A stretch of DNA of 16,000 bases from an uncultured Anaerolineales bacterium (GCA_964439175.1 CAYTNQ010000100.1:1-16000); one strand, 5' to 3'; counted from the first letter of the stretch, positions 1 through 16,000 are shown. Translations and numbers: made by a program. The notes: generated from the letters alone by a model not told the origin.

Positions 1-145
1 CGTCGTCCCAAGATGCCGACATGCTCCTAATCCCACGGGCCACCCTGTTTTCCTTGCTTGAAGTGGCCTGTTACTCAACCTAAATTGGACAAAGTCCAGT
101 AATATATATCATCCTGTGTTCCAGAAAGGATAGCCGCACCTGCTT

Positions 146-3100
146 CTACGACCTCGAGACAGGCAACCTGACAAGCATCATCGTGCCGTCAGCTCCTGTC
201 TTTTCTATTGAAATTTCTCCTGCATACTTTTGCAACAGGAGACCGGTCAGCCACAACCCCAACCCAGAGCCCTCTCCAGGCCTCCTGGAAGGCACTGGCT
301 TGATGAAGAGCTTATCCCGTATGTTGGCTGGGATACCGGGGCCGGTATCCTGGATTTCCACTTCAAGCCGGTCGTCAACACGCCGGCTAACGATAGTCAG
401 GTTACCTCCATCGGGACTCATCGCTTTGTAACTGTTTTCGATCAGGTTGCGGAATATCTCGGTGATTTGCCCCAGAGAAGCCTGGATCAACGGCAGAGAG
501 TCGTCCAAGTTATAGGCGACCTTGACTGCCCCAAACCCGGCTCTGTCCTGATATTGCCCCCAAATCTGAGCCTGGGCCTCGCGCAGACTGGCGTTGATGT
601 CAACGGCTTGAACTTCAGTTTCCTTGAGCGGTTCCTGAATGCGGGCGATGTAATCCGAGGTGTACTGCGTGTTACGCTCGATGATGTCGAGGATTTCCTG
701 GATGGTCTCATTCGACGTGTCCACGCGCTTGCGCAGCCGGGTGACGTTGGGCACGATGATGTTGAGAGTGTTGTTGATGCGGTGCTGGATGGCGGCCGTA
801 ACCGTGCCCAGGGCAGCTAACTGCCTGGCGGCAATCAGTTCTTCACGCGTTGCTGCGTATAGATTTGCATTGTCCAGGGCAATGGCGGCCTGGCTGGCCA
901 TGGAGGAGAGGACCTGCAAATCTTGCTCGTCGTAAGCATGCTCTCGCTCCCAATCATAGATGGCGAGGACACCTATTACTCTCTCGGCAACTACCATCGG
1001 GACCGCAAGATGAGAAGCGGAAACTTCACCAACATACTCTCGATGGCCTGGTTCGTTATACCATGCCAGCGCTTCCGCGTGGGTTTTGTGCAAGATTGGT
1101 TTTCGAGTCAAGATGACTTCTTCTGTCTTCCCTCTCTTCGCTTTATCGATCTTGCGCGGTGCGAAACCCTTCTGCTGCTCAACATCTACACGCCTGCCTC
1201 TCTCCATCACCAGCCTGAAGGTAATAGTATCAGTTTTTTCATCGTACAAGGCAATGTAAATGTTCTGTGTACCGGTTAGTCTACGCGCTTGCCCGTAGAT
1301 TAACTTCAGGATTTCATCTTCCTTCAAACGAATGCCGGAGGTCAAGGTTTGCCCCACTTCGTTCAAGGCGCTGAGCGCATAAACACGCCGCTCAAGGTCC
1401 TGGTAGAGCCGCGCATTTTCGATGGCGATGGCCATCTGGTTGGCTATGGTTATTAACAGGTTGCGGTCATCATTATCGAATACGCAGGGCTGATCAAAGT
1501 TCTGTAATCCGATGGCACCGATGATTCTATCCTTAAAGAGGGCTGGCACCAATAAACAACATTTTACATCCTGGCGGAAAGCCTTTTCAACCTCATCTTC
1601 CCCCACAGCCCAAGCCTCAAAATCCTCGACAAGTAAGGGCTCCCTGTGGCGAATCACCCATTCGGTCAGGCCCCGACGCGTGCCAAAAGGTCGCGGGGCA
1701 TAAGGGCGACCCTCGACTTTAACCTCGTCGTCAATAAGCTGCCCCCTTTCGTAAACTAGCGGAAACCGGATAACGCCAGTATCATCTTCATAAAGAGCAA
1801 TGAACATGCTGCTGGTATCCATCAGCCCTGACATTTTTTCATATACTTGTCCGAGCTGGGCCTGAACCGGAAGAACGCTGCTGATTGCCCGCTGAAATTC
1901 GGCGACGGCCTGCAATGTGTCTTGTTGCCGGCGCAAGTTTATCGCAATTCCCAAATCCAGCGCCAGTGTCTCTAACATCTCCAGATTGTGCTGGGTAAAG
2001 CCGCCGACCTCATCTTTATCCGCAGAAATAACGCCAACGATCTCGTTCTCGATCTTGATGGGGGCTAAAATGATGGAGCGCAAGGCAGAGCGAGGTACGA
2101 CTTTGCCTGCTGTGAAGCGATCGTCGCTGGCAGCATCGTTTACCAATATTGACTCGCCAGTTTTAGCAACAGTGCCGGCTAAACCTTCGCCTGGCTTGAA
2201 ACGCCCGACTTCAGATACACCGTGAAGTGAGCCAATCCTCTCCATAGCCACTAATTCGCCCACTCTTTTATCCAGAATAAAAATAGTACTGTGACTACAA
2301 TTCAGAGTCCGTACAGCAGATTGAACAGCCACCTGGTATATCTGCTCCAGCACGGGCTGTTTAGCCAGGTTATTGGCTACATCATGGAGTATTTGGAAAT
2401 CGTTTAGCAGTGCCTGCGATTGCTGCCGCTGTTCCTGTTCTAACTGAAAGAGTCTGGCATTTCGAATGGCAACGGCAGCCTGGGCTGCAAAGGACTCGAT
2501 GACGTCCTTTTGCTCCGGGCCAAAGAACTGGGGCGTGCGATAGTTCACAAACATCACGCCCACAGTTTCACCGACTACCCTTAGCGGGATAATAGCAGAA
2601 GAAGCAACCTTCTCGCGCACCACAAATCGCTCATCCGGAGCATCATCATGGGGGATATCAAAATCTCTTGTCAACAACGAAGCCGCCCGTGCGTCGTGGA
2701 AGTACTGAGACTCCCCCATCTTTACCGCCGCCACCACTACATCGTCGTCGTATATCTTGGTCGGTATCAAATGAAGATGCAATCTCTCACCCATAAGTGT
2801 AGGCGGCAAGGCGAACTCATTGCGAGCCTGAATATACTGGTACAGATCTACTATATCAGCGTCCAGAACTTCTTGTGCGCTGTGCGCTATGTCCTCTAAC
2901 ACGCTATCCAGTGTCTGAGTTGGGTCTTCGATGGCAACCAACGATTGCCCAACCGCCTTCAACCTGGCAACCGCTTCTGCACGCATATCTGCCAATCGGT
3001 AACTCCACGAATTCGAGATAGCCATAGCAGCCTGCTGGCCGATCAGGTGGATAATCCGCTTTTCATCTTCGGAGAAAGAGTGTGGCTGCCTGTAATCAAC

Positions 3101-3538
3101 GTATAGGATTCCCAGGATGTTGTCGCCCACCCTTAGAGACAGCCCCATAAAGGCCTGGATGCCTTCTCGAGCGATGAAAGAACTCTCTTTTAGCATTTGA
3201 GGCTCTTCCCGTTCGATGTCCTCGCGGACGACCTCACCCTCTCGATGAACGCGCGCAGATAGCCGCCTCTTCTTATCGGCTTTTTCCTCGACCGGCAGAT
3301 CGTGGAGCAAGCCGCAGGCAGCGACGTTTTCCACGTCGTAGAATTCGCCAAAAGCGGGATGATAGGGATAAATTACCGCACAGTCAGCCCCGGTCATGTT
3401 ACACACGACTTCAACCAACAACTGATATACTTTCTTTGGCCTCTCAGCAATATGTCGTTGGGCCGCTTGTCCAATGGACAGGATCTGATCAAGAATCTCA
3501 GCTTGTTTCTCTTGTGATCCAAGGATGGAGCTATGCAT
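146..3538 (-). CDS. Large cytoplasmic multi-GAF sensor histidine kinase (HisKA_2-type H-box plus HATPase_c), no receiver domain
   Basis: 1130-aa ORF. C-terminus has HATPase_c motifs (EIQDTGPGIP, GSGLGLWL G-boxes). Preceding H-box AAIQHRINNTLNII resembles the HisKA_2/HWE-type dimerisation-phosphoacceptor region. The N-terminal ~850 aa consists of repeated GAF-like modules, about five. No hydrophobic TM segments seen. GGAGG Shine-Dalgarno at 3546-3550 (minus strand), 7 nt before the ATG at 3538. Confidence 0.85.
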   Translation of the reverse strand: MHSSILGSQEKQAEILDQILSIGQAAQRHIAERPKKVYQLLVEVVCNMTGADCAVIYPYHPAFGEFYDVENVAACGLLHDLPVEEKADKKRRLSARVHREGEVVREDIEREEPQMLKESSFIAREGIQAFMGLSLRVGDNILGILYVDYRQPHSFSEDEKRIIHLIGQQAAMAISNSWSYRLADMRAEAVARLKAVGQSLVAIEDPTQTLDSVLEDIAHSAQEVLDADIVDLYQYIQARNEFALPPTLMGERLHLHLIPTKIYDDDVVVAAVKMGESQYFHDARAASLLTRDFDIPHDDAPDERFVVREKVASSAIIPLRVVGETVGVMFVNYRTPQFFGPEQKDVIESFAAQAAVAIRNARLFQLEQEQRQQSQALLNDFQILHDVANNLAKQPVLEQIYQVAVQSAVRTLNCSHSTIFILDKRVGELVAMERIGSLHGVSEVGRFKPGEGLAGTVAKTGESILVNDAASDDRFTAGKVVPRSALRSIILAPIKIENEIVGVISADKDEVGGFTQHNLEMLETLALDLGIAINLRRQQDTLQAVAEFQRAISSVLPVQAQLGQVYEKMSGLMDTSSMFIALYEDDTGVIRFPLVYERGQLIDDEVKVEGRPYAPRPFGTRRGLTEWVIRHREPLLVEDFEAWAVGEDEVEKAFRQDVKCCLLVPALFKDRIIGAIGLQNFDQPCVFDNDDRNLLITIANQMAIAIENARLYQDLERRVYALSALNEVGQTLTSGIRLKEDEILKLIYGQARRLTGTQNIYIALYDEKTDTITFRLVMERGRRVDVEQQKGFAPRKIDKAKRGKTEEVILTRKPILHKTHAEALAWYNEPGHREYVGEVSASHLAVPMVVAERVIGVLAIYDWEREHAYDEQDLQVLSSMASQAAIALDNANLYAATREELIAARQLAALGTVTAAIQHRINNTLNIIVPNVTRLRKRVDTSNETIQEILDIIERNTQYTSDYIARIQEPLKETEVQAVDINASLREAQAQIWGQYQDRAGFGAVKVAYNLDDSLPLIQASLGQITEIFRNLIENSYKAMSPDGGNLTIVSRRVDDRLEVEIQDTGPGIPANIRDKLFIKPVPSRRPGEGSGLGLWLTGLLLQKYAGEISIEKTGADGTMMLVRLPVSRS

Positions 3539-3628
3539 ACTTCACTACCTCCGCGCCAACCATATCAACTGGTTGTGATTGCAGATCCAGGCGTCCACGA
3601 GTTGAACGCAGTGATACCGGCAAATCTG

Positions 3629-5014
3629 TCAGCGACTGGCAGCGTTCGGCGCGAGCACCGTGCAGCGCCACTGCTCAACCGCCTTCCGATACTCGTGTTC
3701 CCTGAACTCTAATCCCTTGTGGGCCAGAGAAACTCTTAACAAGGGAACGGGAATGCCAAACTGTTTAACTAGCCTGACGAGGTCTTTTCCTTCCAGCGTG
3801 CAGCCATCGTTTCTGGCGAGAAGCCGGTCAAGTTGGCGGTAGCCACGAGACAAAGTGCGGTCGAAGGCCTGAGCCTCCGCTTCTATGTATGCCAAAAGTC
3901 TGTCACGTCCACGGCCAAGATTTGGATGCCGTTTCCCATCCAGAACGATTTCGTGGTCAATGAGAGCCGGCAAGCAGCCAAGCGGATCAATCTGCAAGAT
4001 TCGCATCTGGGCCAATACCCTGCGAATCAGGATCCTCATCAGGCGTCTTCGTCCACCTTTTCCAGGCGGAGGTGCGCCGTCGGCAGCCAGGAATACCAAC
4101 GCCCTTAAGTGGTCTACCAGGATACGCTCGCTCTCTCTGGCATTGAAGGCGACTTCTACGTTCCAGTGGGAGTAGAAAGACCTCAAATCTTCAATGAGCG
4201 GTCGTACCGTCTCAATTTCAAAAACCGTCGGCTGACTCTCCAAGATCATTGCCACCCGTTCAGTGCCAATGACCGTTTCAGTAAAGGGATCTGCCATCAA
4301 AGACAGAGCGTCGGTCTCGGCATCTATCTCGGCAAAAATGAAGAGTGAATTGGCGAATTCGACAAACCGTCCACATTTACACCCAGGGCGACAATCAGGT
4401 CTACAACTCAGTTGAGAGCCACGGTCAAAGAACAACTCCGTATTTGGTCCACATTTTCGACTGGTTTCCTGGCCGTCAATCCCTCCGCCCTGCTTCCAGA
4501 AGTTGTGATCTGCCCCCAAGCCAACGACACGATCTTCAGGTAAGCCGAGGTCCCGCCAAGCTTGATAGGTTTCAAGGTCCTGGTTAAAGCGATGTCCCGA
4601 AATTTTCCCGCCAGCGAAGTAGGTTGCCCATAGGCGACTTGAGTCAATCTGCAGATCACGCGTCAAAAATTCCCACATACGTCGTATGGCGATTCGTCTA
4701 GTGTTGTGGCCGAATGAGAAAGCGCCGGGCATCTCAAACAAGCTGAGGTGGAGGTCACTCTTGCCGATTCTGTCCACGTCAAAGTGCCTGAAGCAGTTTT
4801 GTACCATCACGTAGTCATCATCGGGAGATCGACTCCCGAGTTGATCGATGGCGGTCTCGACCTCGGCCAGGCCAGCGCTCATGACAAACGTCATCGGGAT
4901 AGAAGGATGCAGCAGTGAGGTGCCCGGCAACTGCTTGAAGCCCAGGCTTTGATAGTAACGAACAAACCGGTCGCTGATTGCTTGTGGGTGCATAGGTTGG
5001 TCAGCTTTAAGCAC
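3629..5014 (-). CDS. Stand-alone alanyl-tRNA synthetase N-terminal-fragment paralog (class II catalytic core plus tRNA-recognition domain; no editing or C-Ala domains)
   Basis: The 461-aa ORF aligns with AlaRS along the whole catalytic fragment. [14 protein letters not shown] matches [25 protein letters not shown]...[11 protein letters not shown] matches QRCVRAGGKHND...FFEMLGNFSFGDYF. NFWKQGG...[10 protein letters not shown] matches [35 protein letters not shown] matches [28 protein letters not shown] matches [29 protein letters not shown]...[13 protein letters not shown] matches ADHIRACAFLIADG...RGYVLRRIIRRAV. It ends at the position equivalent to about residue 461 of E. coli AlaRS. The GTG start at 5014 overlaps the stop of the upstream SPFH gene by 8 nt; an alternative ATG lies at 4993. 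Confidence 0.8.
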   Translation of the reverse strand: [461 protein letters not shown]

Positions 5015-6020
5015 TCAATCGTTGGTTGTGTTCCCTGCGCGGCACACGCTTCAAAATGGCGAGATCGTCCTTGGTCAGAGGTCGGGATGGTCCAGGGGGA
5101 AGGTCGCTACGAGTTTCTGGACGCGCAGGTTGGCGTTCTGCGGCTGTATCTCGTTTCTTCGCCTTCGGTCTGGTGATGACGTTTGGCCCCTCCCCATCTC
5201 TGGCCATCTCGAACTCGACCTCAGACTCGGTATCTGCATCGTGCTCCAGGAGCAGGCGCTGGACTTTACCCGCGTCCACACCTTCAATGGAAGCCAACAT
5301 TTGAGCCAGCACGGCGTTGGACACGCCAGGAAAGCGCTGGCGCAAGCTATCCACATAGTTCGTCAGCCATTCGCTATCGATCTCCCTACCCCGACGACGT
5401 TTAATAGCTTCCACCACTTCATTTGATAAATTTCGCCCGGTCAGCACGATAGAGTGGGCAGGGTTTAAGATAACCCCCACTGAAGGCAATGTCTGCTCCA
5501 GTTCACGCTTAACCCCTTCAAGGAGCTGGCGGTAACGAGGCCCCCCAGGCGCTAAGGCTATAACGCCATCCATCGACGTAGCCTTAGGTGGCAACGGCAT
5601 GCGTTTTTGTAAATCTGAAATCTGGTTAACCAACGCCTCACGCATTTTTACCTCAACCTGGCGGTGACGCTCCCCCTCCCTGATTTGTACAAGCCTGGCC
5701 AACTTATCCCGGTCGCCCCCGGCTGCCTGCACCGGGTCAAAGCTACACCACAGGTTAAGTGTCAGTTCGTTGGGCACACCAAAGGCAAAGAGTCCAGGTA
5801 CAGTGACCTCGATGGGATGATCCCGTACTTCGACAGTTCGGACGACTCGCTCCAGTCCGGGGATTACCAGCACCAGGCCTGGACCCACTACACGCCGAAA
5901 ACGCCCAAGCCGATAGATCACCAGGCGCTCTTCATGAGGGACCACGCGCAGCGTAGCTCTGAGCACAATCGCGATGAGTATTACCAGCAAGACAACTCCG
6001 ACGATCAACAGGATTTCCAT
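5007..6020 (-). CDS. SPFH/band-7 (stomatin/prohibitin/HflK-like) membrane protein with N-terminal TM anchor and charged, probably disordered C-terminal tail
   Basis: N-terminal hydrophobic helix (EILLIVGVVLLVILIAIVL). Then VVPHEERLVIYRLGRFRRVVGPGLVLVIPGLERVVRTVEVR, which matches the SPFH consensus (vVpegeravvfrfGk..rvlgPGlhfiiPfidrv.kvdlr). The ORF-table start at 6026 is a TTG; the ATG at 6020 is preceded by AAGGAG (8-nt spacer). That Shine-Dalgarno overlaps the TAA stop of the upstream NTPase gene. Confidence 0.75.
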   Translation of the reverse strand: MEILLIVGVVLLVILIAIVLRATLRVVPHEERLVIYRLGRFRRVVGPGLVLVIPGLERVVRTVEVRDHPIEVTVPGLFAFGVPNELTLNLWCSFDPVQAAGGDRDKLARLVQIREGERHRQVEVKMREALVNQISDLQKRMPLPPKATSMDGVIALAPGGPRYRQLLEGVKRELEQTLPSVGVILNPAHSIVLTGRNLSNEVVEAIKRRRGREIDSEWLTNYVDSLRQRFPGVSNAVLAQMLASIEGVDAGKVQRLLLEHDADTESEVEFEMARDGEGPNVITRPKAKKRDTAAERQPARPETRSDLPPGPSRPLTKDDLAILKRVPRREHNQRLSA

Positions 6021-6032
6021 ATGCAAAACTCC

Positions 6033-7049
6033 TTATCCTTCATAGGTGCTCAGAAATTGAGCAAAGAGAGGGCTGAACCAGGTAGTGGGGGCTGACAGCA
6101 AACCGCGGCGGACCAAATGATCTATCGTATCTTGATGGTCTGGTGTATGCTGGCCTCGCGCCGCCAGCAAAGCTACCTCTTGCTCCTGCTCATGCAAACT
6201 CAGCAAAATCCGCCGGCATTCCTGCTGAACGTCAGGCTTGGCTGCAAAGTAGGTCAGTGGATCAGCACCCGACACCCCCTCGTTGACCCAGGTGTTAAAA
6301 ACAATCTTAAGCAACTGAGCATGGCCACCAGCAAGTGCGCGAATTTGGGTAAGCTCTTTGTTGTTAAGAGGTTTACCGGCGACTTCATTCAAGTGCATCA
6401 ACATTTGGCGTGCATCATCCGGAGTGTATGGCTCCAGAGCGTAGATATTGTGGCGAAATAGATCGTAAAACTTCGATCCGTTTTCCATATGATGGCTTTG
6501 TCCCAAAATGTGGGGCAGACGCTTAGTAAAGACCAGATAACTCAGCGCCTCGCGATTGCCTTCACTCCGCAGACCGTTCAATCGCTCCAGCATCGCCAGC
6601 GGTCCCGTCTGGAACACCGCATCGAAATCGTCTAAGACAAACATAACTTTGTGTTTGAGCTCCTGGCAAACCCATCCCAGCCGCGCCCGCAGCGTGCTCA
6701 ATGCACGTTCTTCTTCAGAAATGGGGATTATCTTATTGTCGTCTGGGATTGGGGCAAGTTCCTTCGTCGCTTGGTTCAGCGCATCCAGCATCATCTTCCA
6801 CAGGCTAATGGGATCACCCGGCCAATGTGTTGCGTCCACAATAGGAAAGTGCATACGCTCTACATTTTGCTCAATGTGTTGGGCATTGCGCTGAATATCG
6901 CGCAGGAAGTTGACGAGATTAGATTTGCCAATACCAGCGACACCGACAAAACCCAGAGACTCCCCGCGCAATGCGAAGCGAATGATCAAATTGATTTCAT
7001 CTGCGCGATACGTAGGCTGATAGCGAGGTGAGATTATGTTACGTGTCAT
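6033..7049 (-). CDS. AAA+/P-loop NTPase with C-terminal winged-helix-like region (Orc1/Cdc6- or STAND-like ATPase)
   Basis: Walker A GVAGIGKS (GxxGxGKS). Walker B VMFVLDDFD. Sensor-like LVFTKR. C-terminal DHLVRRGLL helix-turn-helix-like segment. Start is ambiguous: ATG at 7049 (MTRNIISPRY...) or TTG at 7124 as in the ORF table; neither has a strong Shine-Dalgarno. The stop is translationally coupled to the SPFH gene. Confidence 0.7.
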   Translation of the reverse strand: MTRNIISPRYQPTYRADEINLIIRFALRGESLGFVGVAGIGKSNLVNFLRDIQRNAQHIEQNVERMHFPIVDATHWPGDPISLWKMMLDALNQATKELAPIPDDNKIIPISEEERALSTLRARLGWVCQELKHKVMFVLDDFDAVFQTGPLAMLERLNGLRSEGNREALSYLVFTKRLPHILGQSHHMENGSKFYDLFRHNIYALEPYTPDDARQMLMHLNEVAGKPLNNKELTQIRALAGGHAQLLKIVFNTWVNEGVSGADPLTYFAAKPDVQQECRRILLSLHEQEQEVALLAARGQHTPDHQDTIDHLVRRGLLSAPTTWFSPLFAQFLSTYEG

Positions 7050-7167
7050 CTGAAACTTGTCCCATTCGACTATATGAAAGATGACCTTGTGAAGGGAGAG
7101 AGGAAGACAGAAGCTGACCCACAACGGATTGCTCGGGCTTGCGCTGTTTTATGTTATCATAAGTTAG

Positions 7168-7194
7168 ATTACAATATAATCACCCCATTGTCAA
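7168..7194 (-). promoter_or_regulatory. Candidate sigma70-like promoter for the NTPase-SPFH-AlaRS-like operon
   Basis: On the minus strand: TTGACA (7194..7189), 15-nt spacer, TGTAAT (7173..7168). It sits in the AT-rich 211-bp divergent intergenic region. The plus strand of the same region has a TATAAT at 7175-7180 that could serve ybaK. Confidence 0.3.
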
Positions 7195-7245
7195 GAACGA
7201 ATTTCAAGTCGTGGGGCGTTTCAAAGGGAGCAAATAGGAGGGAGT

Positions 7246-7332
7246 ATGGCTCAACTGAAAAAACTGGTTTGTGCAAAAGCCCGAAAAGCTTATAATCGTG
7301 AGTTACGAAAATCCATTGATGCTGGCCGCTGA
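7246..7332 (+). CDS. Hypothetical 28-codon small basic ORF (MAQLKKLVCAKARKAYNRELRKSIDAGR), possible leader or small protein upstream of ybaK
   Basis: ATG at 7246 is preceded by AGGAGGGAG (Shine-Dalgarno, about 4-5 nt spacer). It is in the same frame as ybaK. TGA at 7330-7332 is followed by 3 nt and then the ybaK ATG. The product is rich in Lys and Arg. It is below the ORF-track length cutoff. Confidence 0.3.
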   Translation: MAQLKKLVCAKARKAYNRELRKSIDAGR

Positions 7333-7335
7333 TCT

Positions 7336-7824
7336 ATGAGTAACGACAAGACAAACGCCATGCGCGTCCTGGATGCGCGCAAAATCCCGTATCAAGTTTT
7401 CACCTTTTCGCCCGACATCCACTCGGCCGCTGGCGTGGCTGAGGCCATCGGACTGCCACCCCGGCAAGTTTACAAAACCCTGGTGGTGCTGCGTTCCCAG
7501 GGAAAGCCGATGTTGATTATGGTCGCCGGCGACCGAGAGCTGGATCTGAAACGGGTAGCCAAGGCAGTAGGCGAGAAGAAAGTGCGCATGGCTTCGCACA
7601 AAGAGGCGGAAGCGCTGACCGGCCTGCAGGTGGGAGGTATTTCGGCGTTGGCGCTCCTCAATCGCCCATTCGAGGTGTTCATCGACCGTCCCGCCACTGA
7701 ACTGTCCCACCTGTTGGTCAGCGCCGGCAAACGGGGAATCAACCTGCGGCTGGCCGTCCCAGACCTCATCCGCGTCACCCGTGCCCACATCATCGAGGCG
7801 ACCGAACAAGCCGAACATTCCTGA
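7336..7824 (+). CDS. ybaK: YbaK/ProX-family aminoacyl-tRNA trans-editing deacylase (Cys-tRNA(Pro) deacylase-like)
   Basis: 162 aa. N-terminus TNAMRVLDARKIPYQVFTF matches E. coli YbaK TPAVKLLEKNKISFQIHTY. PPRQVYKTLVV matches the conserved (R)VFKTLV motif. Length matches stand-alone YbaK (about 159 aa). Confidence 0.85.
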   Translation: MSNDKTNAMRVLDARKIPYQVFTFSPDIHSAAGVAEAIGLPPRQVYKTLVVLRSQGKPMLIMVAGDRELDLKRVAKAVGEKKVRMASHKEAEALTGLQVGGISALALLNRPFEVFIDRPATELSHLLVSAGKRGINLRLAVPDLIRVTRAHIIEATEQAEHS

Positions 7825-9361
7825 TTTGGAAATCGTCCCAGGCAAATTCATCGTGTTGCAAGTCCGGTGCCAGACGGGCGGCAGTGACGGTTAATTCGTT
7901 GTAGCCGGGCCGCAAGGCCGAGACCGGTACGTCACGACGCACGGTCAACCAGCGACGGGCGAAATCTTCCATTGGCAGGTCAGGCGACAGGGCCACATCG
8001 TTAACCACCAGACTGGCCCCGATCTCGTTCTGTTGCATCAATTCCAATACCAACACCCAATCGGAGGTCCCAGGGTCGCGCAGGTAAAAGCCGCCAGTCC
8101 AGGCGATACTTGGCTTGTGCCCCGCAAAGAGAGGCCACCACGGCGACAGGAGGTCGCTGTCGCCCAGGTGCACTACCGCGTCCGGCGCCAGTATCGGCAC
8201 CACCCCGACCTCAGCCCCAGTTGCAAACTGCTCAGAGTGATCGCCACCTTTTGCCTCCAGCCCCCTGCCCCTGGCCCCCAACTTCTTGCTCCCCTCCGCC
8301 TGGCGCCACATCTCATATGCTGGCCGGGGATCCCCTGTCGAGTCAATCAGGCTATAGCCTCCAAAAGGATCTCCTGGCTCTGGCTGCGACAGATTCCACA
8401 CCGTCACCAATTCCACCCAGGGCCATTCGCGGCGGACGCGGTCCAAGGCACCAGTCAGATACGCTCCCTGCTGCGCCAGGCTCACACCGAGGCCCGGCTG
8501 ATCGGGCGGCGCGTCCACTGTCCAACCCATCTCAGTAATCCACACCGGCTTATCGCCATCGCCCTGTTCGAGCATAATGGCCCGCAGATCCTCGAGGCGA
8601 GCAAAAACCAGCCCGTCGTTGGCACTTTCTGGCGCGTCAGGAGGCAGTCCGAAGCCATACGGGTGTGCGCCCAGCACGTCGAAGTAAGGAGCAGCGCCCG
8701 CCTGATACATGCCCCGCAAAAAGATGCGTTCATCCATGGCACGCTCGCCATCGCCGTTGGTCGGGGCCAGGCCCGCCGCAATCACCAGCGCGTCGGGGTC
8801 ACCCGCCTTCACTGCCTGGTAGCCAGCGCGTAACAACTGCACATAAGCAGCCGGATCGGGCGCATGGCCACCCCACTCCAGCGCCAGGTTGGGCTCATTC
8901 CAGATGATATAGGCTCGGATGCGACCCCGGTAGCGCCAGGCAACTCGCTCCACGAAGTGCCGATAGTCTCCCAGCGCCTCAGGCGGTGCGTTGAGCGGTG
9001 GTTGCACATCGCTGACCCAGGGCGGATGCTGGTCGAGGCGCACCACCAAATCCAGGCCATAATATTCGGCGCCAGCGACTACCTGGTCAGTCACTTCCCA
9101 GTGGAACTGGCCCCGGGTGGGCTCGATCTCGCGCCAGGCAAAGACCTGCACCACGGTGTCAAACCCGGCTGCCCGCGCCAGCGCCAACGAACGGTCATCG
9201 GCGCGTAAGGTGTGGGCTGCCAGTCGCAGCCCTCGCTCCCCCGACCGCCGGGACAGCATGTCGATTGGGTCAGGTGAGGTGCGAGTGCACCCAGTTCCGA
9301 TCAGCAGCCAGGCAAACGCCAACAGAATAAGGGAGGCGATAGTGTGTACCAAACGCTGCAT
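7790..9361 (-). CDS. Secreted clan GH-A (GH5-like) glycoside hydrolase, probable lipoprotein, with extra C-terminal domain
   Basis: N-terminal signal peptide ending LLIGTGC (lipobox-like). FAWREIEPTRGQFHW and IIWNEPN (acid/base Glu in the NEP motif). WITEMGW (nucleophile Glu in the TE motif). The last ~150 aa have no recognisable domain. Its 3' end overlaps the ybaK 3' end by 35 nt (convergent). Confidence 0.75.
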   Translation of the reverse strand: MQRLVHTIASLILLAFAWLLIGTGCTRTSPDPIDMLSRRSGERGLRLAAHTLRADDRSLALARAAGFDTVVQVFAWREIEPTRGQFHWEVTDQVVAGAEYYGLDLVVRLDQHPPWVSDVQPPLNAPPEALGDYRHFVERVAWRYRGRIRAYIIWNEPNLALEWGGHAPDPAAYVQLLRAGYQAVKAGDPDALVIAAGLAPTNGDGERAMDERIFLRGMYQAGAAPYFDVLGAHPYGFGLPPDAPESANDGLVFARLEDLRAIMLEQGDGDKPVWITEMGWTVDAPPDQPGLGVSLAQQGAYLTGALDRVRREWPWVELVTVWNLSQPEPGDPFGGYSLIDSTGDPRPAYEMWRQAEGSKKLGARGRGLEAKGGDHSEQFATGAEVGVVPILAPDAVVHLGDSDLLSPWWPLFAGHKPSIAWTGGFYLRDPGTSDWVLVLELMQQNEIGASLVVNDVALSPDLPMEDFARRWLTVRRDVPVSALRPGYNELTVTAARLAPDLQHDEFAWDDFQIRNVRLVRSPR

Positions 9362-9396
9362 CAGAATCCCCTTACGCTATACGGCATACAAAGTAC

Positions 9397-9473
9397 TGCG
9401 TATTGCGCGCTTCGCGTGCGTATTGCGTGTTGCGTAGTGGATATTGCGTCCGGGATGCTGAGTGCGCGCAATA
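9397..9473. repeat. TATTGCG direct repeats (9401, 9421, 9442; about 20-bp spacing) plus inverted copy CGCAATA (9467-9473) upstream of the glycosidase gene
   Basis: Read directly from the sequence: TGCGTATTGCG at 9397-9407 and 9417-9427, TATTGCG at 9442-9448, and CGCAATA at 9467-9473. They lie in the 127-bp region between the glycosidase start (9361) and the oxidase stop (9489). Confidence 0.35.
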
Positions 9474-9488
9474 GGCAGGTTCCAAGAT

Positions 9489-11108
9489 TCACGGAAATAC
9501 CAGCTTGCCCGGATTCATCACACCTTCGGGGTCGAAAGTTCGGCACAGGCTGCGCAGGGCTGCCATACCCACTTTCCCCTTTTCGGCCGGCAGGTAGGAG
9601 GTGTGGTCGACGCCCACGCCATGTTGGTGGCTGATGGTACCGCCGGCGGCGACGATGACATCGCTGGCGGCGGCCTTGAGAAGACGCCAGCGCCGCAGGG
9701 TCTCGCCGGGGTCTATGCCGTGCGGGCTGGAGTCAGCCAGAGGCAGTCGAAAGAGGTAGGTGACGTAGATGCTGGCACCGTCGGTGTAAATGTGAGACAA
9801 ATGGGCGAAGACATGGACACGCTCCCCAACCTCCTTTAGCCCATCCCGCAGGGCGCGCCGTATGGCATCCGCTGTGGGGAAAACGTCTAACCAGCGGACG
9901 GCAGTCTCCAGTGTATCCACAGCGTAGCCTCGCTCCCAGAGCGTGTTGCGCAGGTAGGGAGTGCGAAAGCGGCTCTTGCGCCACTCTTCCCCCAACTTAC
10001 GTCCCACACAGACACCGCCGTAAGCGCGGGCGACTTCCATCACCTGCTTGCGGGTTGCTTTCACTGCGTCGTCACACCCAGTGATACCAACAAAAAGTAT
10101 ACACCTGTTCGGACCCAGTCCACGCAGACGCAGCAGCCGCTCCAACAAGCTCACCAGCCCTTCGTGGCCGGCCAGGGCCAGGGTGGTGGTCGTCTCGACA
10201 GTGTCGCTCAGGCGCAACATTGAAAGAGGCAGCCGGGCCTGAGCCATCTCGCGGACGGCAGCCACACCCTGCGCCCAAACCGGGAAGAAGATGGCGTGGA
10301 ACTCCTCCCGTTCGGGCAGCGGGCTGACCCGCAGAGTGGCCTGGGTGATGATCCCCAGCCGCCCCTCGGAGCCAAGCACAAGCTGCCGCAGGTCAGGCCC
10401 CGCGGCACTGGCAGGGAAAGGTGGCAGATTCAGCCGCCCCATGGGCGAGAGCAGCCGTCCGCCTGCGAACAACTCTTCAATGCGTCCATAATACAGGGAT
10501 TGCTGTCCACTGGAGCGGGTGGCGATCCAGCCGCCTAGCGTAGAGAGCTCAAAGGATTGGGGAAAGTGCCCCAAGGTATAGCCTCGCGCCCGCAGACTTG
10601 CCTCCAGGCGTGGACCGTCTACCCCGGCACCAAAAGTCGCGAGCCGGCTCACCTCGTCGAGGGCAAACCGGCGGTTGATGCGGCCCATATCCATGGTGAG
10701 AACCGGGGCATGGCCTGGAGACGGATTTACGTGACCCACGACGCTCGTCCCGCCGCCATAAGGAATGAGGTGGGCACCAACCCTGGCAGCGAATGTGATA
10801 AGTTGCGCTACCTCTTCCTCAGATGAAGGGAAGGCAATGCCATCCGGGAAGGCCGGAATATGCCCACTCCGAATAGCAACCCAGTCAGGTAGACTCTGGC
10901 CGCAAGCGTGGCACAAGCGCGCTTCGGCGTCAGTGGTTACCAGCGGATAGGCAGGCAGGCGACCGCGAGGGACGGCGCGAAGCACTTGGGCTAACGCGGC
11001 GTCTTGCGGCGGCGTCGCTGGGCCGAGAACCTCCTCCAGAAAGCGAAGCGCCGAGGGAGAAAGGGGATACGCAACGGCCTGGTCACCCCATCCATTCCAA
11101 CGTCGCAT
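9489..11108 (-). CDS. FAD-linked oxidase, alkyldihydroxyacetonephosphate synthase (AGPS)-like (FAD_binding_4 plus C-terminal oxidase domain)
   Basis: N-terminal RRWNGWGD motif characteristic of AGPS-like enzymes. PYGGGTSVVG FAD-binding segment. C-terminal HQHGVG typical of vanillyl-alcohol-oxidase-family FAD oxidases. ATG at 11108 (TTG at 11111 in the ORF track) is preceded by GGAGG at 11118..11114 with a 5-nt spacer. Confidence 0.8.
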   Translation of the reverse strand: MRRWNGWGDQAVAYPLSPSALRFLEEVLGPATPPQDAALAQVLRAVPRGRLPAYPLVTTDAEARLCHACGQSLPDWVAIRSGHIPAFPDGIAFPSSEEEVAQLITFAARVGAHLIPYGGGTSVVGHVNPSPGHAPVLTMDMGRINRRFALDEVSRLATFGAGVDGPRLEASLRARGYTLGHFPQSFELSTLGGWIATRSSGQQSLYYGRIEELFAGGRLLSPMGRLNLPPFPASAAGPDLRQLVLGSEGRLGIITQATLRVSPLPEREEFHAIFFPVWAQGVAAVREMAQARLPLSMLRLSDTVETTTTLALAGHEGLVSLLERLLRLRGLGPNRCILFVGITGCDDAVKATRKQVMEVARAYGGVCVGRKLGEEWRKSRFRTPYLRNTLWERGYAVDTLETAVRWLDVFPTADAIRRALRDGLKEVGERVHVFAHLSHIYTDGASIYVTYLFRLPLADSSPHGIDPGETLRRWRLLKAAASDVIVAAGGTISHQHGVGVDHTSYLPAEKGKVGMAALRSLCRTFDPEGVMNPGKLVFP

Positions 11109-11136
11109 CAACGCCTCCGGTTTCTTCGTGACCGAA

Positions 11137-11255
11137 TTATCCCAAAACGATTTGGGATAATTTTGGATAAATTATAGAGATATTCTAAGAATCGGCGACC
11201 AACTTGGCATAAATTTGGGATAAACTTGGGATAACTTTGGGATAACTTTGGGAAT
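11137..11255. promoter_or_regulatory. Array of TTGGGATAA-type 9-mers with strict 11-bp periodicity plus a perfect 10/4/10 palindrome, in the oxidase promoter region; candidate operator or iteron array
   Basis: Palindrome TTATCCCAAA-acga-TTTGGGATAA at 11137-11160. Direct copies start at 11152, 11163 (TTTGGATAA), 11204 (TTGGCATAA), 11215, 11226, 11237 and 11248 (TTGGGAAT). Every offset within a cluster is exactly 11 bp. A TATAAT sits on the minus strand at 11176..11171 between the two clusters. GANTC sites at 11189-11193 and 11252-11256. Confidence 0.6.
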
Positions 11256-11271
11256 CTCAGACGTGATTGGC

Positions 11272-12645
11272 TTATTTCAGTATGTAATACGTGCCCCGTT
11301 TGTCGCCCACTTTGAGCAGCAAGCCTTTGTCTACCAGATCGGCCAAGTCGAGGCGCAAGGTCTCGGGGGAGACGTTGGGGCAGATGGTGCGGTAGTCGCG
11401 GTTTGTGATGCGCCCGAACTCACGCACGTGAGCCAGCGCCCGCATCTGGCGCTCGTTCATATTCTGCTCCCATGGTGGGGATGGGCGCCGTTCGCGCACA
11501 TTGCGGAGGGTAACGCTGAAAGAGTAAGGCGTGGCTTTGAAATCGGGTGGCGGGTGGCCGCGCTGCAACATCTCTTCGATCATGCGATCGATGCCCAACC
11601 CCAACTCCTCAATGTAGCCCCACTGAAAGAGGCCAGCCACGATGCGGGGATTGCGCGAAAAGTGCTCTTCGACGATGTTATCTACCGTGATATAGCCGGG
11701 TAGGCCGCCGGGGCTGATCACTTCCAGCCGATCTTCGAACATGCGGATCTCCACGCGCCGGCCGGAGAGGCGGTAATCCCGATGGGCGATGGCGTTTACC
11801 AGCGCTTCGCGTACGGCGAAGCTGGGATATTCAGGTTGCTCCTCCCGCTGAAGGCCGACTACCACGGCCCCTACGCGCATCTCTTCCCAAACGATGTTCC
11901 ACGCTGATTCCAGCAAGCGAGCTAACGGTCCTTCCAATTCGGCGCGCCGGCCATATCCGGCCAAACCATCCTTGCCACGCGGCTCGCTGCCCACAAAGCG
12001 CACGAAGACAATGCCGCTCTGGGATATGAACTCCTGCGGGCACTTGCCGAAGAGAAGTAAACCCGAAACGGTGGGCGTGCCGTCCGGGGTTAAGGCACCG
12101 ATACTGATTAAGTGATCGTCCACTGTGCCGCTAACCGGACGCCGTCCTCGCTCTGCCCGCTTCTCCAGATATTCTTCAATGACGGCGTCGTCCATATCGG
12201 TGCGGCGCGCGCCGCCGACTGGCTCCGCCTCGAAGTCGCCACTGGACTTGGTGGCAGCGAGCTGGCGGATAGCGTCGCCCCCCAGCGGCCGGTTCCCGGG
12301 ACCGTGGCGGATGAGCACCCGGCCATCGGCTAGGCTATGTAATTCCGGGCTGCGGGCCACACTGATGTGCACTACGGTGCCCTGGGGCAATTCGGCCTGC
12401 CCCCATTCGGTAGCGACGGGAGGACGGCACAATCCAAGAGCTTGCTGAAGAAGCCCTTCCACATCCTCGTCCAGCACATCGCCGGTCACTTGCCCCTCCG
12501 GCGTGATACCAATCAGAATGGTGCCACCATCGGCGTTGGCGAAGGCGACCAATGTCTCGGCCAGCCCCTCCACCTCAGGATCCGGCAAAAAGGCGGTGGT
12601 TTGATTCGGCCCGCGAGCTAGCAAATTAGAAAGGTGAGTTCGCAT
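11272..12645 (-). CDS. AlbA_2 (Schlafen-like divergent AAA) plus HATPase_c_4 plus C-terminal winged-HTH putative transcriptional regulator (often misannotated as a RecG-like helicase)
   Basis: N-terminal LAETLVAFANADGGTILIGI (AlbA_2 signature). REALVNAIAHRDY (HATPase_c_4 signature). C-terminal ITNRDYRTICPNVSPETLRLDLADLVDKGLL winged helix. Confidence 0.85.
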   Translation of the reverse strand: MRTHLSNLLARGPNQTTAFLPDPEVEGLAETLVAFANADGGTILIGITPEGQVTGDVLDEDVEGLLQQALGLCRPPVATEWGQAELPQGTVVHISVARSPELHSLADGRVLIRHGPGNRPLGGDAIRQLAATKSSGDFEAEPVGGARRTDMDDAVIEEYLEKRAERGRRPVSGTVDDHLISIGALTPDGTPTVSGLLLFGKCPQEFISQSGIVFVRFVGSEPRGKDGLAGYGRRAELEGPLARLLESAWNIVWEEMRVGAVVVGLQREEQPEYPSFAVREALVNAIAHRDYRLSGRRVEIRMFEDRLEVISPGGLPGYITVDNIVEEHFSRNPRIVAGLFQWGYIEELGLGIDRMIEEMLQRGHPPPDFKATPYSFSVTLRNVRERRPSPPWEQNMNERQMRALAHVREFGRITNRDYRTICPNVSPETLRLDLADLVDKGLLLKVGDKRGTYYILK

Positions 12646-12761
12646 CCTATCTCACTGCACCTAGACTCTACAAGAGGACTAATCAACTTCTCCAACCATT
12701 CTACTTCATCACATCTTCTTTTCCAAAATTTGAACAAATACCAAGTCCTCCCAAACGTAGC

Positions 12762-13865
<1,104 letters not shown>

Positions 13866-13907
13866 TTACACCGGCCCTTGTTCTACAATCTACCCCCCCT
13901 GACTAAG

Positions 13908-15071
13908 CTAAATCTGATCCCAAAAACCTAGCTGGTGAGAGGGGCGGTGACCATTGAGCAAAATGAAGGGAGCAGTCCGGCCCGCGACGGCGCCCAAGGC
14001 ACGCAAGTCAGACAGGTTCTGCAGGTGACCCTGGCGGCGCGCACGCAAAATGGCGTCAGCGCTGCGCGGACCAATGCCCGGCACGCGCAATAACTCCCTG
14101 CGGCTGGCCCGGTTGATTTCTAACGGCTGCTCCGCCAGGTGCTGGCGCGCCCAGGCCAGCTTGGGGTCGACGCCAACCGGCAGCAGGCCCCGGTGGTCGA
14201 AAGGGAGTTCGTCCAGGGTGAAGCCGTAGAAACGCAGGAGCCAGTCAGCCTGGTAGAGGTGGTGTTGGCGGATGGGAGGCGTGCGATCAGCACCGGCCAG
14301 TGGCGTGTCGGGCACAGGGTTGAAGCCAGAGTAGTAGGCACGGGCTAATTTCACCTGGCGGTAGAGTTGGTCGGCAGCCATCAGTAGCTCGCGGTCGCTC
14401 TCGCCCGCCGGGCCGACGACGAATTGCGTCGTCAGGCTAGGTGTTTTGGCCAGCAGCCCTTGTGCCCTGGGAATCTCGTAAGCCCAGCGCATGGCCTGCA
14501 GCAACTCCCCGGCAAAGTCCTTTTGCGGGGCCAGGCGGGCCAACCTGGCCGCGTTCGCGCCTTCCAGGTTAATGGATACCCGGTCGGCCAGGCGAAGCGC
14601 ATGCTCTACCTGCGACCGTTCGGCCCCCGGCATGATCTTCAAATGGACGTAGCCGCGATATGCGTATTTACGCCGGATCAACTCGACGCTGGCCAACATC
14701 GGATCCATGGTTTTGGTCCCGCCACCAACGACCCCGCTGCTGAGAAACAGCCCTGTGACGACCCCCGCCTGCTGCATACGGTCGAATTCGCGGGCCAGTT
14801 CGTCGGGGCTCAAACGGACGCGGACGGTGCTGCCCCGCCCCGCCCGAAAGGGACAGTAGTGACAGTTCCGCTCGCAAGCGCTGGTCTGCATGGTGCGCAG
14901 CACGGTCATCGGACCGTCCGGCCGCTGAACCTGATAGAGAGACCTGTCCAGAAAATCGCGCTTGGCTTGTTGGCGAGGCGTCAGCATCGGTTCGCCATCA
15001 CACTCAAGCCTGCTCTCATGGGCCAGCAGTTGCAGCTTCTGTTGAGCGTCAGGTGTGATAAGCGTGTGCAT
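13908..15071 (-). CDS. Radical SAM protein with C-terminal helix-hairpin-helix (putative DNA modification/repair radical SAM family)
   Basis: CxxxCxxC motif (CERNCHYCPF) about 65 aa from the N-terminus. C-terminal LRVPGIGPRSADAIL HhH motif. Length 387 aa. Confidence 0.7.
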   Translation of the reverse strand: MHTLITPDAQQKLQLLAHESRLECDGEPMLTPRQQAKRDFLDRSLYQVQRPDGPMTVLRTMQTSACERNCHYCPFRAGRGSTVRVRLSPDELAREFDRMQQAGVVTGLFLSSGVVGGGTKTMDPMLASVELIRRKYAYRGYVHLKIMPGAERSQVEHALRLADRVSINLEGANAARLARLAPQKDFAGELLQAMRWAYEIPRAQGLLAKTPSLTTQFVVGPAGESDRELLMAADQLYRQVKLARAYYSGFNPVPDTPLAGADRTPPIRQHHLYQADWLLRFYGFTLDELPFDHRGLLPVGVDPKLAWARQHLAEQPLEINRASRRELLRVPGIGPRSADAILRARRQGHLQNLSDLRALGAVAGRTAPFILLNGHRPSHQLGFWDQI

Positions 15072-15102
15072 ACTCCTATTATACGAACGTTTGTTCGGTA
15101 CG

Positions 15103-16000
15103 TCAAGAAGATATCTCGCGAGCCAGGCTCGCCCATTCGTCCAGACTGAGCGTCTGGGCGCGGCGTCGGGGATCTACCCCAGCCCGAGTCAGAGCGCCGA
15201 CCATTTCGGTCGGGGACAGATCCAGGCCGGCAGCTAAGGCATTCTTGAGTTGCTTGCGCTTCTGTCCAAACCCGGCGCGGACGACGCGGAAGAAAGTCTC
15301 TGCGTCGGGCACCTGGACCGGCGTTGCGTCGTAGGTGTCAATACGGACCACTGCCGAATCCACTTTGGGAGGTGGGACGAAGGCCCCGGCAGGGATTTTG
15401 GCGACGATCCGCGGCTGGCCGTAGAACCGTACGCTCACCGCCAGCATACTCATGTCACCCGGTCTGGCGACCATCCGCTCGGCAACCTCACGCTGCACGG
15501 TCAGCACCAGCCGCCGGGGGGGCGGGTCCGCCTCCAGCAGATGGCGGATGGCGGCCGAAGTGATGTAATAGGGCAAGTTGGCGACGACGACGTATATAAG
15601 AGGAGACTGGAGATTGGGAGATTGGAGATTGGCAGATTGCCTGCCCCCCGGCCCGCTGGCGCGAGCCCGGGCGGGCTGGCGGGTAGGCCAGGGGAGATTG
15701 GGGGGCTGAGGGCCACGCATTAAGGCGGCCGGGTCAAGCTGCAAGATGTCCCCCTGTACCAATTCTAGATGGGGCAGGTACGCCAATTCCTCCCGCAGCA
15801 GGCCGATCATCGCCTGATCCAGTTCGACGGCGACGACGCGTCCGGCAGCCCGGGCCAACAAGCGGGTAAGAGTCCCCAGGCCGGGTCCGATCTCCAGCAC
15901 CGCCATCTCGGATGATAGTTCCGCTGCCTCGACGATCTTGCGTAGAATATTGGGGTCAGCCAGAAAGTGCTGCCCCAGCCCTTTACGCGGGCGCAGATTG
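15103..16000 (-). CDS. rsmA: 16S rRNA (adenine1518/1519-N6)-dimethyltransferase RsmA/KsgA, 5'-truncated by the window edge, with an approx 35-aa Pro/Arg-rich insertion
   Basis: VLEIGPGLGTLT (SAM motif I). VVANLPYYITS (KsgA NLPY motif). The reading frame stays open from 15906 to the window end, and the upstream codons translate to NLRPRKGLGQHFLADPNILRKIVEAAELSSE, the canonical KsgA N-terminus. The true start is therefore beyond 16000. Confidence 0.85.
   Translation of the reverse strand, partial: NLRPRKGLGQHFLADPNILRKIVEAAELSSEMAVLEIGPGLGTLTRLLARAAGRVVAVELDQAMIGLLREELAYLPHLELVQGDILQLDPAALMRGPQPPNLPWPTRQPARARASGPGGRQSANLQSPNLQSPLIYVVVANLPYYITSAAIRHLLEADPPPRRLVLTVQREVAERMVARPGDMSMLAVSVRFYGQPRIVAKIPAGAFVPPPKVDSAVVRIDTYDATPVQVPDAETFFRVVRAGFGQKRKQLKNALAAGLDLSPTEMVGALTRAGVDPRRRAQTLSLDEWASLAREISS
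15602..15639. repeat. Tandem heptamer (G)AGATTG x4-5 inside rsmA, encoding the SANLQSPNLQSP part of the insertion
   Basis: ggagactgg-agattgg-gagattgg-agattgg-cagattg, read directly at 15602-15639. Confidence 0.6.

Follow-up and report, generated by a model that had tools for sequence, protein, structure and literature searches.

Genes and base composition of the window

We analysed a stretch of 16,000 nucleotides from an uncultured Anaerolineales bacterium (GCA_964439175.1 CAYTNQ010000100.1:1-16000), called the window in the following, in which a block of genes with low guanine plus cytosine (GC) content on the left meets a GC-rich block on the right. The left block comprises the first four genes (about 7 kb) of a gene set that recurs in related genomes and is termed the cassette here. 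It encodes a histidine kinase with several GAF domains, a paralogue of alanyl-tRNA synthetase (AlaRS), an SPFH protein and an AAA+ ATPase. The features of the window are listed below, together with GC content and GC content at third codon positions (GC3).

1 to 145, no strand: spacer downstream of the kinase gene, 49% GC
146 to 3538, minus strand: cytoplasmic sensor histidine kinase with five GAF domains and HATPase_c, 1130 amino acids, GC 52.0%, GC3 0.581
3629 to 4993, minus strand: paralogue of the AlaRS catalytic and tRNA-recognition domains, 454 amino acids from Met8, GC 53.5%
5007 to 6026, minus strand: SPFH/Band_7 protein, 339 amino acids, hydrophobic at the N-terminus (read as a transmembrane helix), GC 55.8%
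6033 to 7049, minus strand: AAA+ ATPase with a C-terminal winged-helix region and a Cdc6/Orc1/STAND-like fold, 338 amino acids from Met26, GC about 50%
7050 to 7200, minus strand: promoter-like element and leader of the cassette, from the upstream alignment of six copies
7201 to 7335, no strand: half of the divergent intergenic region nearest to ybaK, which can be aligned for the window, L010 and L001 only
7336 to 7824, plus strand: ybaK (Cys-tRNA(Pro) deacylase), with which the GC-rich native block begins, GC 60.1%, GC3 0.724
7790 to 15906, minus strand: GC-rich block (59–65% GC) of six genes from a glycoside hydrolase to KsgA, assigned by Pfam/NCBIfam

The genes of the left block are all encoded on the minus strand with gaps of 6–90 nucleotides, and the AAA+ ATPase gene is the first cassette gene in the lineage of the window. 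In all relatives this gene starts at Met26 (ATG at 7049), so that the intergenic region towards ybaK extends from 7050 to 7335. The six genes after ybaK encode a glycoside hydrolase, an FAD-linked oxidase, a protein with AlbA_2 and HATPase_c_4 domains, a CcrM-like methyltransferase with a RAMA domain, a radical-SAM/HhH protein and KsgA. With the exception of the oxidase gene, the gene order of the right block is syntenic in the related loci L001, L010 and L030.

A sliding profile of the GC content remains at 48–57% until about 7.25 kb and then lies mostly at 58–67%. Positions 1 to 7124 have a GC content of 52.6%, positions 7125 to 7335 of 42.7% and positions 7336 to 16000 of 61.3%, which corresponds to a step of 8.7 points between the blocks. 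The best single changepoint determined by maximum likelihood was 7408 with a log-likelihood gain of 67.5, a gain that none of 1000 permutations of 300-nucleotide blocks reached (permutation maximum 28.5). The step is present at every codon position and is strongest at the third, where the values per gene do not overlap (GC3 0.555–0.581 in the four genes on the left versus 0.688–0.750 in the seven on the right; p=0.006 in a Mann-Whitney test, the lowest value attainable). A strand effect is not the cause of the step, since all genes except ybaK are encoded on the minus strand. The two blocks differ in synonymous codon usage (chi2=176, df 41, p=1e-18), which is homogeneous inside each of them (p=0.52 and 0.64). 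Of the arginine codons, 25% in the left block and 5% in the right block are AGA or AGG, and the amino acids G, A, R and P (GARP) account for 27.9% versus 34.9% of the residues. Tetranucleotide z-scores, which have low power at such length, correlate between left and right with 0.28–0.29 and inside the blocks with 0.20 and 0.35. The left block deviates from the neighbouring chromosome in GC content and codon usage, as is expected of a genomic island.

An earlier description of this DNA, made without any searches (the sequence-only reading), had reported a break from about 50% to 62–67% GC on the basis of eight hand-counted 60-nucleotide windows. We found all eight counts to be exact (51.7, 50.0, 45.0 and 46.7% at 2401, 4201, 5401 and 6601, and 61.7, 65.0, 65.0 and 66.7% at 7441, 8401, 13201 and 14401). 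The break itself is real, but such short samples overstated its size; the GC content of 60-nucleotide windows has a standard deviation of 6–8 points, and the values of the two blocks overlap. The switch had been assigned to the AT-rich divergent intergenic region, and the boundary does lie there, but the region comprises 7050 to 7335 (43.4% GC) and not 7125 to 7335.

The cassette and its GC deficit in related genomes

The neighbourhoods of nine members of the AlaRS-like family were read, and in all nine the AlaRS-like gene is followed by a multi-GAF kinase gene and at least one receiver (REC) gene. Most neighbourhoods have two REC genes after the kinase gene, usually succeeded by genes for a REC-TCAD9 protein (TCAD9 being a kinase-like domain) and a REC-CHAT protein (CHAT being a caspase-like protease). 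Variants of this arrangement are an EAD7-REC effector end in L006, an nSTAND1-HATPase protein after the kinase in L002 (16823-19045), an added Trypco1 in L094, and an end consisting of REC-EAD11 and EAD11-trypsin in L096, which is a Thermoflexia metagenome-assembled genome (MAG; 1-15643). Two Band_7 genes, a TPR gene and a divergent EAD7-NB-ARC STAND protein are located nearby in L096. Five cassettes (window, L006, L007, L010, L013) have genes for the AAA+ and SPFH proteins upstream of the AlaRS-like gene. The same probably applies to L005 and L008; the cassettes of L001, L002 and L094 have no such genes.

The DNA of L010 to L013 is about 89–91% identical to the window with unchanged gene order (about 91% at the nucleotide level for L011 and L012 over the part common with the window, about 89% for the longer alignments of L010 and L013). 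These loci reveal what follows beyond position 1 of the window, namely two REC genes, the REC-TCAD9 gene and the REC-CHAT gene, and then a convergent cbiQ gene. At the distal boundary in L011 and L012, REC-CHAT (52.3% GC) is separated by 30 nucleotides from cbiQ (66.3% GC, GC3 0.81). The low-GC block in the lineage of the window is about 11–12 kb long and sharply bounded on both sides, by ybaK and, in the relatives, by cbiQ.

Contigs from metagenomes can be chimeric, and a GC step at an intergenic region resembles a mis-join, so that two organisms might have been joined near 7.2 kb during assembly. However, the alignment across the junction is continuous (window 2444-10837, 88.8%) in L010 and L013, which are assemblies from other samples, and the junction of ybaK and cassette was found again in L001. 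The presence of the junction in these independent assemblies rules out an assembly artefact, and we assign practically no probability to a chimera.

Copies of the cassette are distributed patchily in Chloroflexota (Anaerolineae and Thermoflexia). The core of AlaRS-like, GAF kinase and REC genes adjoins varied neighbours, among them ybaK, spoU/dnaE, suf/thiS, an ABC transporter, a flavoprotein gene and Band_7/TPR genes. For the window and eight further loci, which represent seven distinct genomic contexts, the pooled coding GC of the cassette was compared with that of the flanking genes:

Window: cassette 52.7%, flank 62.2%
L010: cassette 53.1%, flank 62.0%
L011: cassette 53.1%, flank 66.3%
L001: cassette 51.7%, flank 60.3%
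L002: cassette 49.8%, flank 57.3%
L005: cassette 53.3%, flank 57.1%
L006: cassette 51.2%, flank 56.7%
L094: cassette 48.0%, flank 57.6%
L096: cassette 52.7%, flank 62.4%

The cassette is thus below its flanks in nine of nine loci, by 3.9–13.1 GC points and by 7–22 GC3 points, and these loci span AlaRS-like identities from 93% down to 48%. The presence of the deficit in all further loci down to 48% identity shows that it is a property of the cassette and not the trace of a particular donor. It has been reported that core coding GC exceeds accessory coding GC as a general rule (Bohlin et al. 2017, BMC Genomics, PMC5303225). The accessory block described here is likewise lower in coding GC than the neighbouring conserved genes; however, the difference amounts to up to 13 points and concerns one cassette across many genomes instead of a genome-wide average.

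A promoter-like element upstream of the first cassette gene is also common to the copies. In the window it consists of TTGACA (7194-7189), a distance of 17 nucleotides and then TGTAATCT with TAATCT (7171-7166). The motif TTGAC-N12-AT.T.GTA..CTA is kept in all six aligned cassette copies (window, L001, L002, L005, L006 and L010), independent of the flank and of the first gene, which can be the ATPase or the AlaRS-like gene. A strict sigma-70 scan did not call the element, and its -10 hexamer matches at only three to four of six positions. The common element suggests that the copies may share their regulation. The ybaK-proximal half of the spacer (7201-7335) is alignable only among the window, L010 and L001, which are the copies sharing the ybaK junction, and the border of the island lies at about 7201-7335. 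An Rfam search of the window and five loci for leader RNAs, such as a T-box upstream of the AlaRS-like gene, gave no match in any cassette.

Age, empty sites and origin

The size of the GC change had been taken in the sequence-only reading as a sign that the block was acquired from elsewhere. Indeed, a recent horizontal transfer from a foreign donor of about 50% GC, with a composition that has not yet ameliorated, would explain the deviant GC, GC3 and codon usage with its excess of AGA and AGG, the sharp boundary at the AT-rich intergenic region and the absence of the block at the same locus in some relatives. Such a transfer does not agree with the deficit in every examined copy across the class, and it does not agree with the age of the block. 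Between the window and L010, synonymous divergence (dS) is 0.25–0.67 in the cassette and 0.18–0.54 in the flanks, and the ratio of non-synonymous to synonymous divergence (dN/dS) is 0.05–0.31, with a slightly higher mean in the cassette (0.20 vs 0.14). The equal dS values and the low dN/dS ratios indicate that cassette and flanks were co-inherited and that the cassette is functional and under purifying selection. Judged by these divergences, it would have occupied its present site at least from the time when the relatives with about 89% identity branched off.

The taxonomic distribution likewise argues against a foreign donor. Statements on taxonomy cover homologues carrying an organism name, and most matches carry none. 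All named AlaRS-like homologues of the 454-amino-acid type belong to Chloroflexota, with MAGs of Anaerolineae, Chloroflexi or Thermoflexia as the only sources. Plasmid and phage collections contained no AlaRS-like paralogue, only canonical alaS at less than 30% identity. Among the named homologues of the cassette proteins, three labels from outside Chloroflexota were found, Rubrivivax (AAA ATPase), Candidatus Parcubacteria (AAA) and Deltaproteobacteria (REC-CHAT). The protein tree of the AlaRS-like family is star-like and does not separate a donor of the island in L001. In addition, the tetranucleotide correlation between left and right is within the range inside the blocks, and mobility genes and att repeats were not found (see below). 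The closest named homologues were found neither in another taxon nor, for the AlaRS-like protein, on a mobile replicon, and the block is neither younger than its flanks nor set apart by its oligonucleotide signature. The cassette is probably neither recent nor foreign in the genome of the window, and we regard a foreign donor as very unlikely.

Sites without the cassette were found by a metagenome scan with the neighbouring glycoside hydrolase as query. In L014, L015, L016 and L090, the glycoside hydrolase and ybaK genes are followed by a short spacer and a tRNA-Pro(TGG) gene, and no cassette is present. Downstream of tRNA-Pro, L014 to L016 contain a Zn-ribbon/TPR/PD40 gene and a GT2 gene, and L015 additionally a TPR gene and the ThrRS gene. 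In L097, which is the extended contig of L001, tRNA-Pro, PD40, GT2, TPR and ThrRS genes lie beyond the cassette. According to blastn, L097 1-666 corresponds to L014 up to the start codon of ybaK (89.9%), and L097 from 12945 onwards corresponds to L014 from two nucleotides before the 3´ end of the tRNA (83.1%). The distance between ybaK and tRNA-Pro is 12,278 nucleotides in L097 versus 71 nucleotides in L014. Presence and absence at a defined site, as expected of a genomic island, are thus observed for L097 versus L014, L015, L016 and L090.

In the tree of the glycoside hydrolase, L001 and L014 are sisters (87% amino acid identity), L015 and L016 are next, and the window and L010 form another clade. 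A hairpin in the spacer of the empty site is common to L014, L015 and L090. This shared hairpin spacer and the nested position of L001 show that the empty state is ancestral for this clade and that the lineage of L001 gained the island; occupancy in L001/L097 is an island gain. No empty site was found in the lineage of the window itself.

The 12,278-nucleotide segment of L097 contains, besides the cassette (50–52.5% GC), a ParE-type toxin-antitoxin pair, a small TPR-like gene and a spacer of 355 nucleotides with 42% GC. The ParE-type toxin, the adjacent small putative antitoxin (without domain match) and the small TPR/SNAP-like gene are located at 11714-12591 and have a flank-like GC content of 57–59%. 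The position of the ParE and TPR genes between cassette and tRNA-Pro suggests that a larger mobile unit once carried the cassette.

The tRNA-Pro(TGG) beside ybaK was located at 2270-2344 in L014, 2646-2720 in L015, 2641-2715 in L016, 12947-13021 in L097 and about 1779-1840 in L090, the last by sequence match only since ARAGORN did not call it. The editing factor gene ybaK thus neighbours a tRNA of the type that its product proofreads, and the lineage of the window is without a tRNA at this place.

It might also be possible that the cassette genes are native and vertically inherited, their low GC resulting from low expression or relaxed codon selection and their absences from deletions and rearrangements. 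The comparison with L001 is compatible with this, since divergence from the window is similar inside and outside the cassette: identity is 72% for the AlaRS-like protein and 66–91% for the flank proteins. The kinase, with 48% identity in this comparison, and REC-CHAT, with 49% between L011 and L001, evolve faster. The equal dS and the slightly higher mean dN/dS of the cassette mentioned above are also in line with native genes. Furthermore, GAF kinases outside the cassette are somewhat GC-poor in the relatives (GC 54%, GC3 0.635–0.65). On the other hand, vertical inheritance does not account for the derived occupancy in L001, which follows from the empty state shared by L014, L015 and L090 and from the nested position of L001, nor for a neighbourhood that differs in nearly every lineage while the promoter-like element is kept. 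The flank genes (methyltransferases, hydrolase and ybaK) are not highly expressed genes, yet their GC3 is about 0.7, and GC at the first and second codon positions is lower in the cassette as well. We therefore consider purely native genes to be an unlikely explanation.

Classical genomic islands, known from the concept of pathogenicity and fitness islands, are inserted next to tRNA genes. The cassette resembles them in being a discrete block with deviant GC and codon usage that is present or absent between close relatives, and its copy in L001/L097 borders on the 3´ end of tRNA-Pro and is accompanied by a ParE-type toxin-antitoxin pair. It differs from them in that no copy has an integrase, a transposase, a flanking direct repeat or a partial tRNA duplication, that it is confined to one phylum and that its GC deficit recurs over deep divergence instead of decaying. 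While tRNA-Pro(TGG) abuts the island in L001/L097, the window, L010 and L011 carry the cassette at a locus without a tRNA or tRNA-Pro fragment. A tRNA search of the window gave no hit, and no fragments of tRNA-Pro were found in the window, L010, L011 or L001. Mobility genes were found neither with Pfam and NCBIfam among all genes of the window nor in the recorded Pfam content of the related loci. The island ends have no direct-orientation word of at least 10 nucleotides in common in L010/L011 or L097 that could represent an att-type repeat. The repeats of the window contain nothing relevant to the island ends, and no inverted repeats link the ends either. These domain, tRNA and repeat searches bear out the sequence-only reading in that the window contains no integrase, transposase, tRNA or terminal repeats.

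Taken together, we conclude with a probability of about 0.7 that the low-GC block is an accessory cassette or genomic island of about 11–12 kb, the low GC content of which is long-standing, and that it is not a recent foreign import. The earlier suggestion of a distinct genomic island is supported, by a cassette bounded by genes of at least 60% GC, by its varied contexts and by the pair of occupied and empty sites. The accompanying suggestion that the size of the GC change indicates acquisition from elsewhere is not upheld, given the deficit in all loci, the equal dS, the assignment of all but three named homologues to Chloroflexota and the lack of a mobility gene, att site or tRNA remnant. 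Conserved synteny in related genomes had been named as an argument against an island; it was observed in very close relatives and one more distant relative, but not in the others.

The GC step at about 7.2–7.4 kb would accordingly mark the border between chromosomal genes (about 61% GC) and the accessory cassette (about 53% GC). The cassette may form a transcription unit by itself, with a conserved promoter-like element of its own and the order AAA+/winged-helix ATPase, SPFH, AlaRS-like, multi-GAF kinase, two receivers, REC-TCAD9 and REC-CHAT, the last four known from close relatives. It would be gained, lost or relocated as a block among related Chloroflexota. Since the deficit stays in every context examined, the composition break would be the standing signature of a circulating, class-restricted accessory module and not the scar of an un-ameliorated import. 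We infer that the deficit might persist because the cassette is exchanged laterally within the class time and again, because selection or gene conversion favouring GC acts less strongly on accessory genes, or for both reasons. For annotation, this means that a GC step of 9 points together with deviant codon usage flags an accessory island, but neither dates the acquisition nor names the donor, since the same deficit is present in all nine loci through deep divergence.

Several points weigh against this conclusion. The ybaK-proximal spacer common to the window and L001, which also fits native genes, could mean common descent of the junction, and the event in the lineage of the window could be a gain or an ancestral presence. 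No integrase, transposase or flanking repeat was found at any copy examined, so that a mechanism of movement is not visible. In two copies, some cassette genes have a flank-like GC content: in L002 the AlaRS-like gene, and in L096 this gene and the Band_7/TPR genes. The native background of about 61% is derived from 8.7 kb and from cbiQ in relatives. Ordinary genes with a GC content in the low to mid 50s are present in related genomes (GT2 50.6–52.9%, TPR 55%, a class II aminoacyl-tRNA synthetase fragment 53.7%), and heterogeneity from gene to gene is thus considerable. Finally, the functional interpretation given below is drawn from domain content only.

Possible function of the cassette and further observations

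The AlaRS-like family comprises proteins of about 450 amino acids, and the member in the window is without editing or C-Ala domains. It matches positions 2-421 of the 847 positions of the alaS model with 215 bits (cut-off 457). The residues corresponding to the canonical D235 and G237 are Glu239 and Val241 (P0001 numbering), invariant in 22 family members, whereas the motif-2 Arg (invariant), the NFW Trp, the pocket Asn and the G-x-E-R motif are kept. An invariant Cys4 insert, C-x3-C-x3-C-x-C (C197, C201, C205 and C207, P0001), takes the place of the canonical GGPPGSPEEDGDR loop, and the AGGK loop is absent from the family. The protein thus differs from a canonical alanyl-tRNA synthetase in architecture, pocket residues and score. 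The Cys4 insert could be a metal or redox site accompanying a changed ligand pocket.

AcmF, a truncated AlaRS-like aminoacyl transferase of ascamycin biosynthesis, uses Ala-tRNA as acyl donor and is reported to lack most ATP-binding residues and to carry N219Q (PMC12945691). When compared by description, both proteins have a truncated architecture and an Asp-to-Glu exchange at the residue for the alanine amino group (D232E in AcmF, Glu239 here). However, the cassette family has retained the motif-2 Arg together with the Asn and the G-x-E-R motif and adds G237V and the invariant Cys4 insert, and it is encoded in a signalling cassette instead of a biosynthetic cluster.

The other cassette proteins include the parts of a two-component phosphorelay. 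The kinase of the window has a HATPase_c domain (E=4e-16), and receiver domains were found in four downstream proteins of L011; phosphotransfer between the kinase and the phospho-acceptor Asp of the receivers is predicted. The REC-CHAT family retains its catalytic residues, with an invariant Asp52/Lys109 in the receiver, the His350/Cys400 dyad of caspases and a near-invariant Asp8. The central GAF region of the kinase (window 902-2443) is unalignable at the DNA level with the relatives of about 89% identity, although both ends align; compared with the orthologue in L010 it has diverged or expanded. The kinase has 1130 amino acids in the window versus 968 in L010, with a range of 603–1783 among relatives. 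Its non-synonymous divergence (dN) of 0.21 exceeds that of all other genes in the region. The GAF array seems to undergo rapid gain, loss or replacement. The structure model of the ATPase (pLDDT 82.9) matched Cdc6/Orc1 and archaeal AAA+ proteins with a winged helix in a fold search, and more weakly the STAND proteins Avs3 and RPP1. A TniB-like role in transposition, considered for this AAA_22-like ATPase, was rejected on the basis of these fold matches.

NTP-dependent conflict systems of multicellular bacteria, with Chloroflexi among the carriers, have been described by Kaur et al. (PMC7159879, eLife 2020; PMC8195603, 2021). The cassette has in common with them TCAD9, EAD7, EAD11, Trypco1, CHAT and trypsin effectors and STAND/AAA+ NTPases, as well as a variable effector end, here CHAT, EAD7-REC or EAD11-trypsin. 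It differs from them in its core, which consists of a multi-GAF histidine kinase and four receivers instead of vWA-MoxR or GTPase modules. No vWA or MoxR domain of the ternary core of vWA, MoxR and VMAP is recorded in any cassette copy. Kaur et al. (2020, PMC7159879) state that the conflict-system effectors included no histidine kinase, and an AlaRS-like component is not mentioned in PMC7159879 or PMC8195603. With PADLOC (PADLOC-DB 2.0), the four cassette proteins of the window gave no match, and there is no model for the set; the downstream cassette proteins gave weak generic matches only (SAVED_CHAT 6e-8, receiver-like to SduA). Literature searches found no published description of the cassette. 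While the step is ordinary as a compositional finding, the cassette flagged by it is a variant of known conflict or signalling systems.

From the domain content we infer a phosphorelay in which the GAF kinase would signal to four receivers and thereby activate a caspase-like protease, as part of a regulated cell-fate or anti-invader system. The AlaRS-like protein might be the input or the signal-generating component. As a tentative suggestion, which may well prove wrong, the cassette could represent an undescribed conflict or cell-fate system of Chloroflexota with a CHAT or trypsin protease that the multi-GAF kinase would control via receiver-domain fusions, a coupling to tRNA or aminoacylation status through the AlaRS-like protein with its retained tRNA-recognition domain, and AT-richness caused by continual lateral circulation without self-encoded mobility. 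Should the cassette function in regulated suicide or immunity, a phosphorelay-driven type would be added to the conflict systems known from multicellular bacteria. Besides AcmF, it would then be another case of a truncated AlaRS with an Asp-to-Glu exchange recruited to a non-translational role.

The GC-rich block shows some features of its own. The window (9489-11111) and L010 contain an FAD-oxidase gene that is missing between the glycoside hydrolase and AlbA_2 genes in L001 and L030, which represents a second indel polymorphism. The AT-rich spacer between the FAD-oxidase and AlbA_2 genes contains 4.5 copies of the 11-nucleotide tandem repeat TTGGGATAAAT and a related 10-nucleotide pair (window 11150-11253), which cause a local dip of the GC content to about 54%. 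In ksgA, an in-frame tandem repeat of 7/8/15 nucleotides (15602-15639) encodes NLQSPNLQSP inside an insertion of about 28 amino acids relative to KsgA of L001. The AlbA_2/HATPase_c_4 protein (11272-13859) is encoded by the most conserved gene of the region with 91% identity to L001, and it matches an Argonaute-associated PADLOC model (pAgo, 8e-27). Next to it are encoded a CcrM-like adenine methyltransferase, which seems to be an orphan and carries a RAMA domain, and a radical-SAM/HhH protein belonging to a type associated with uracil-DNA glycosylase.

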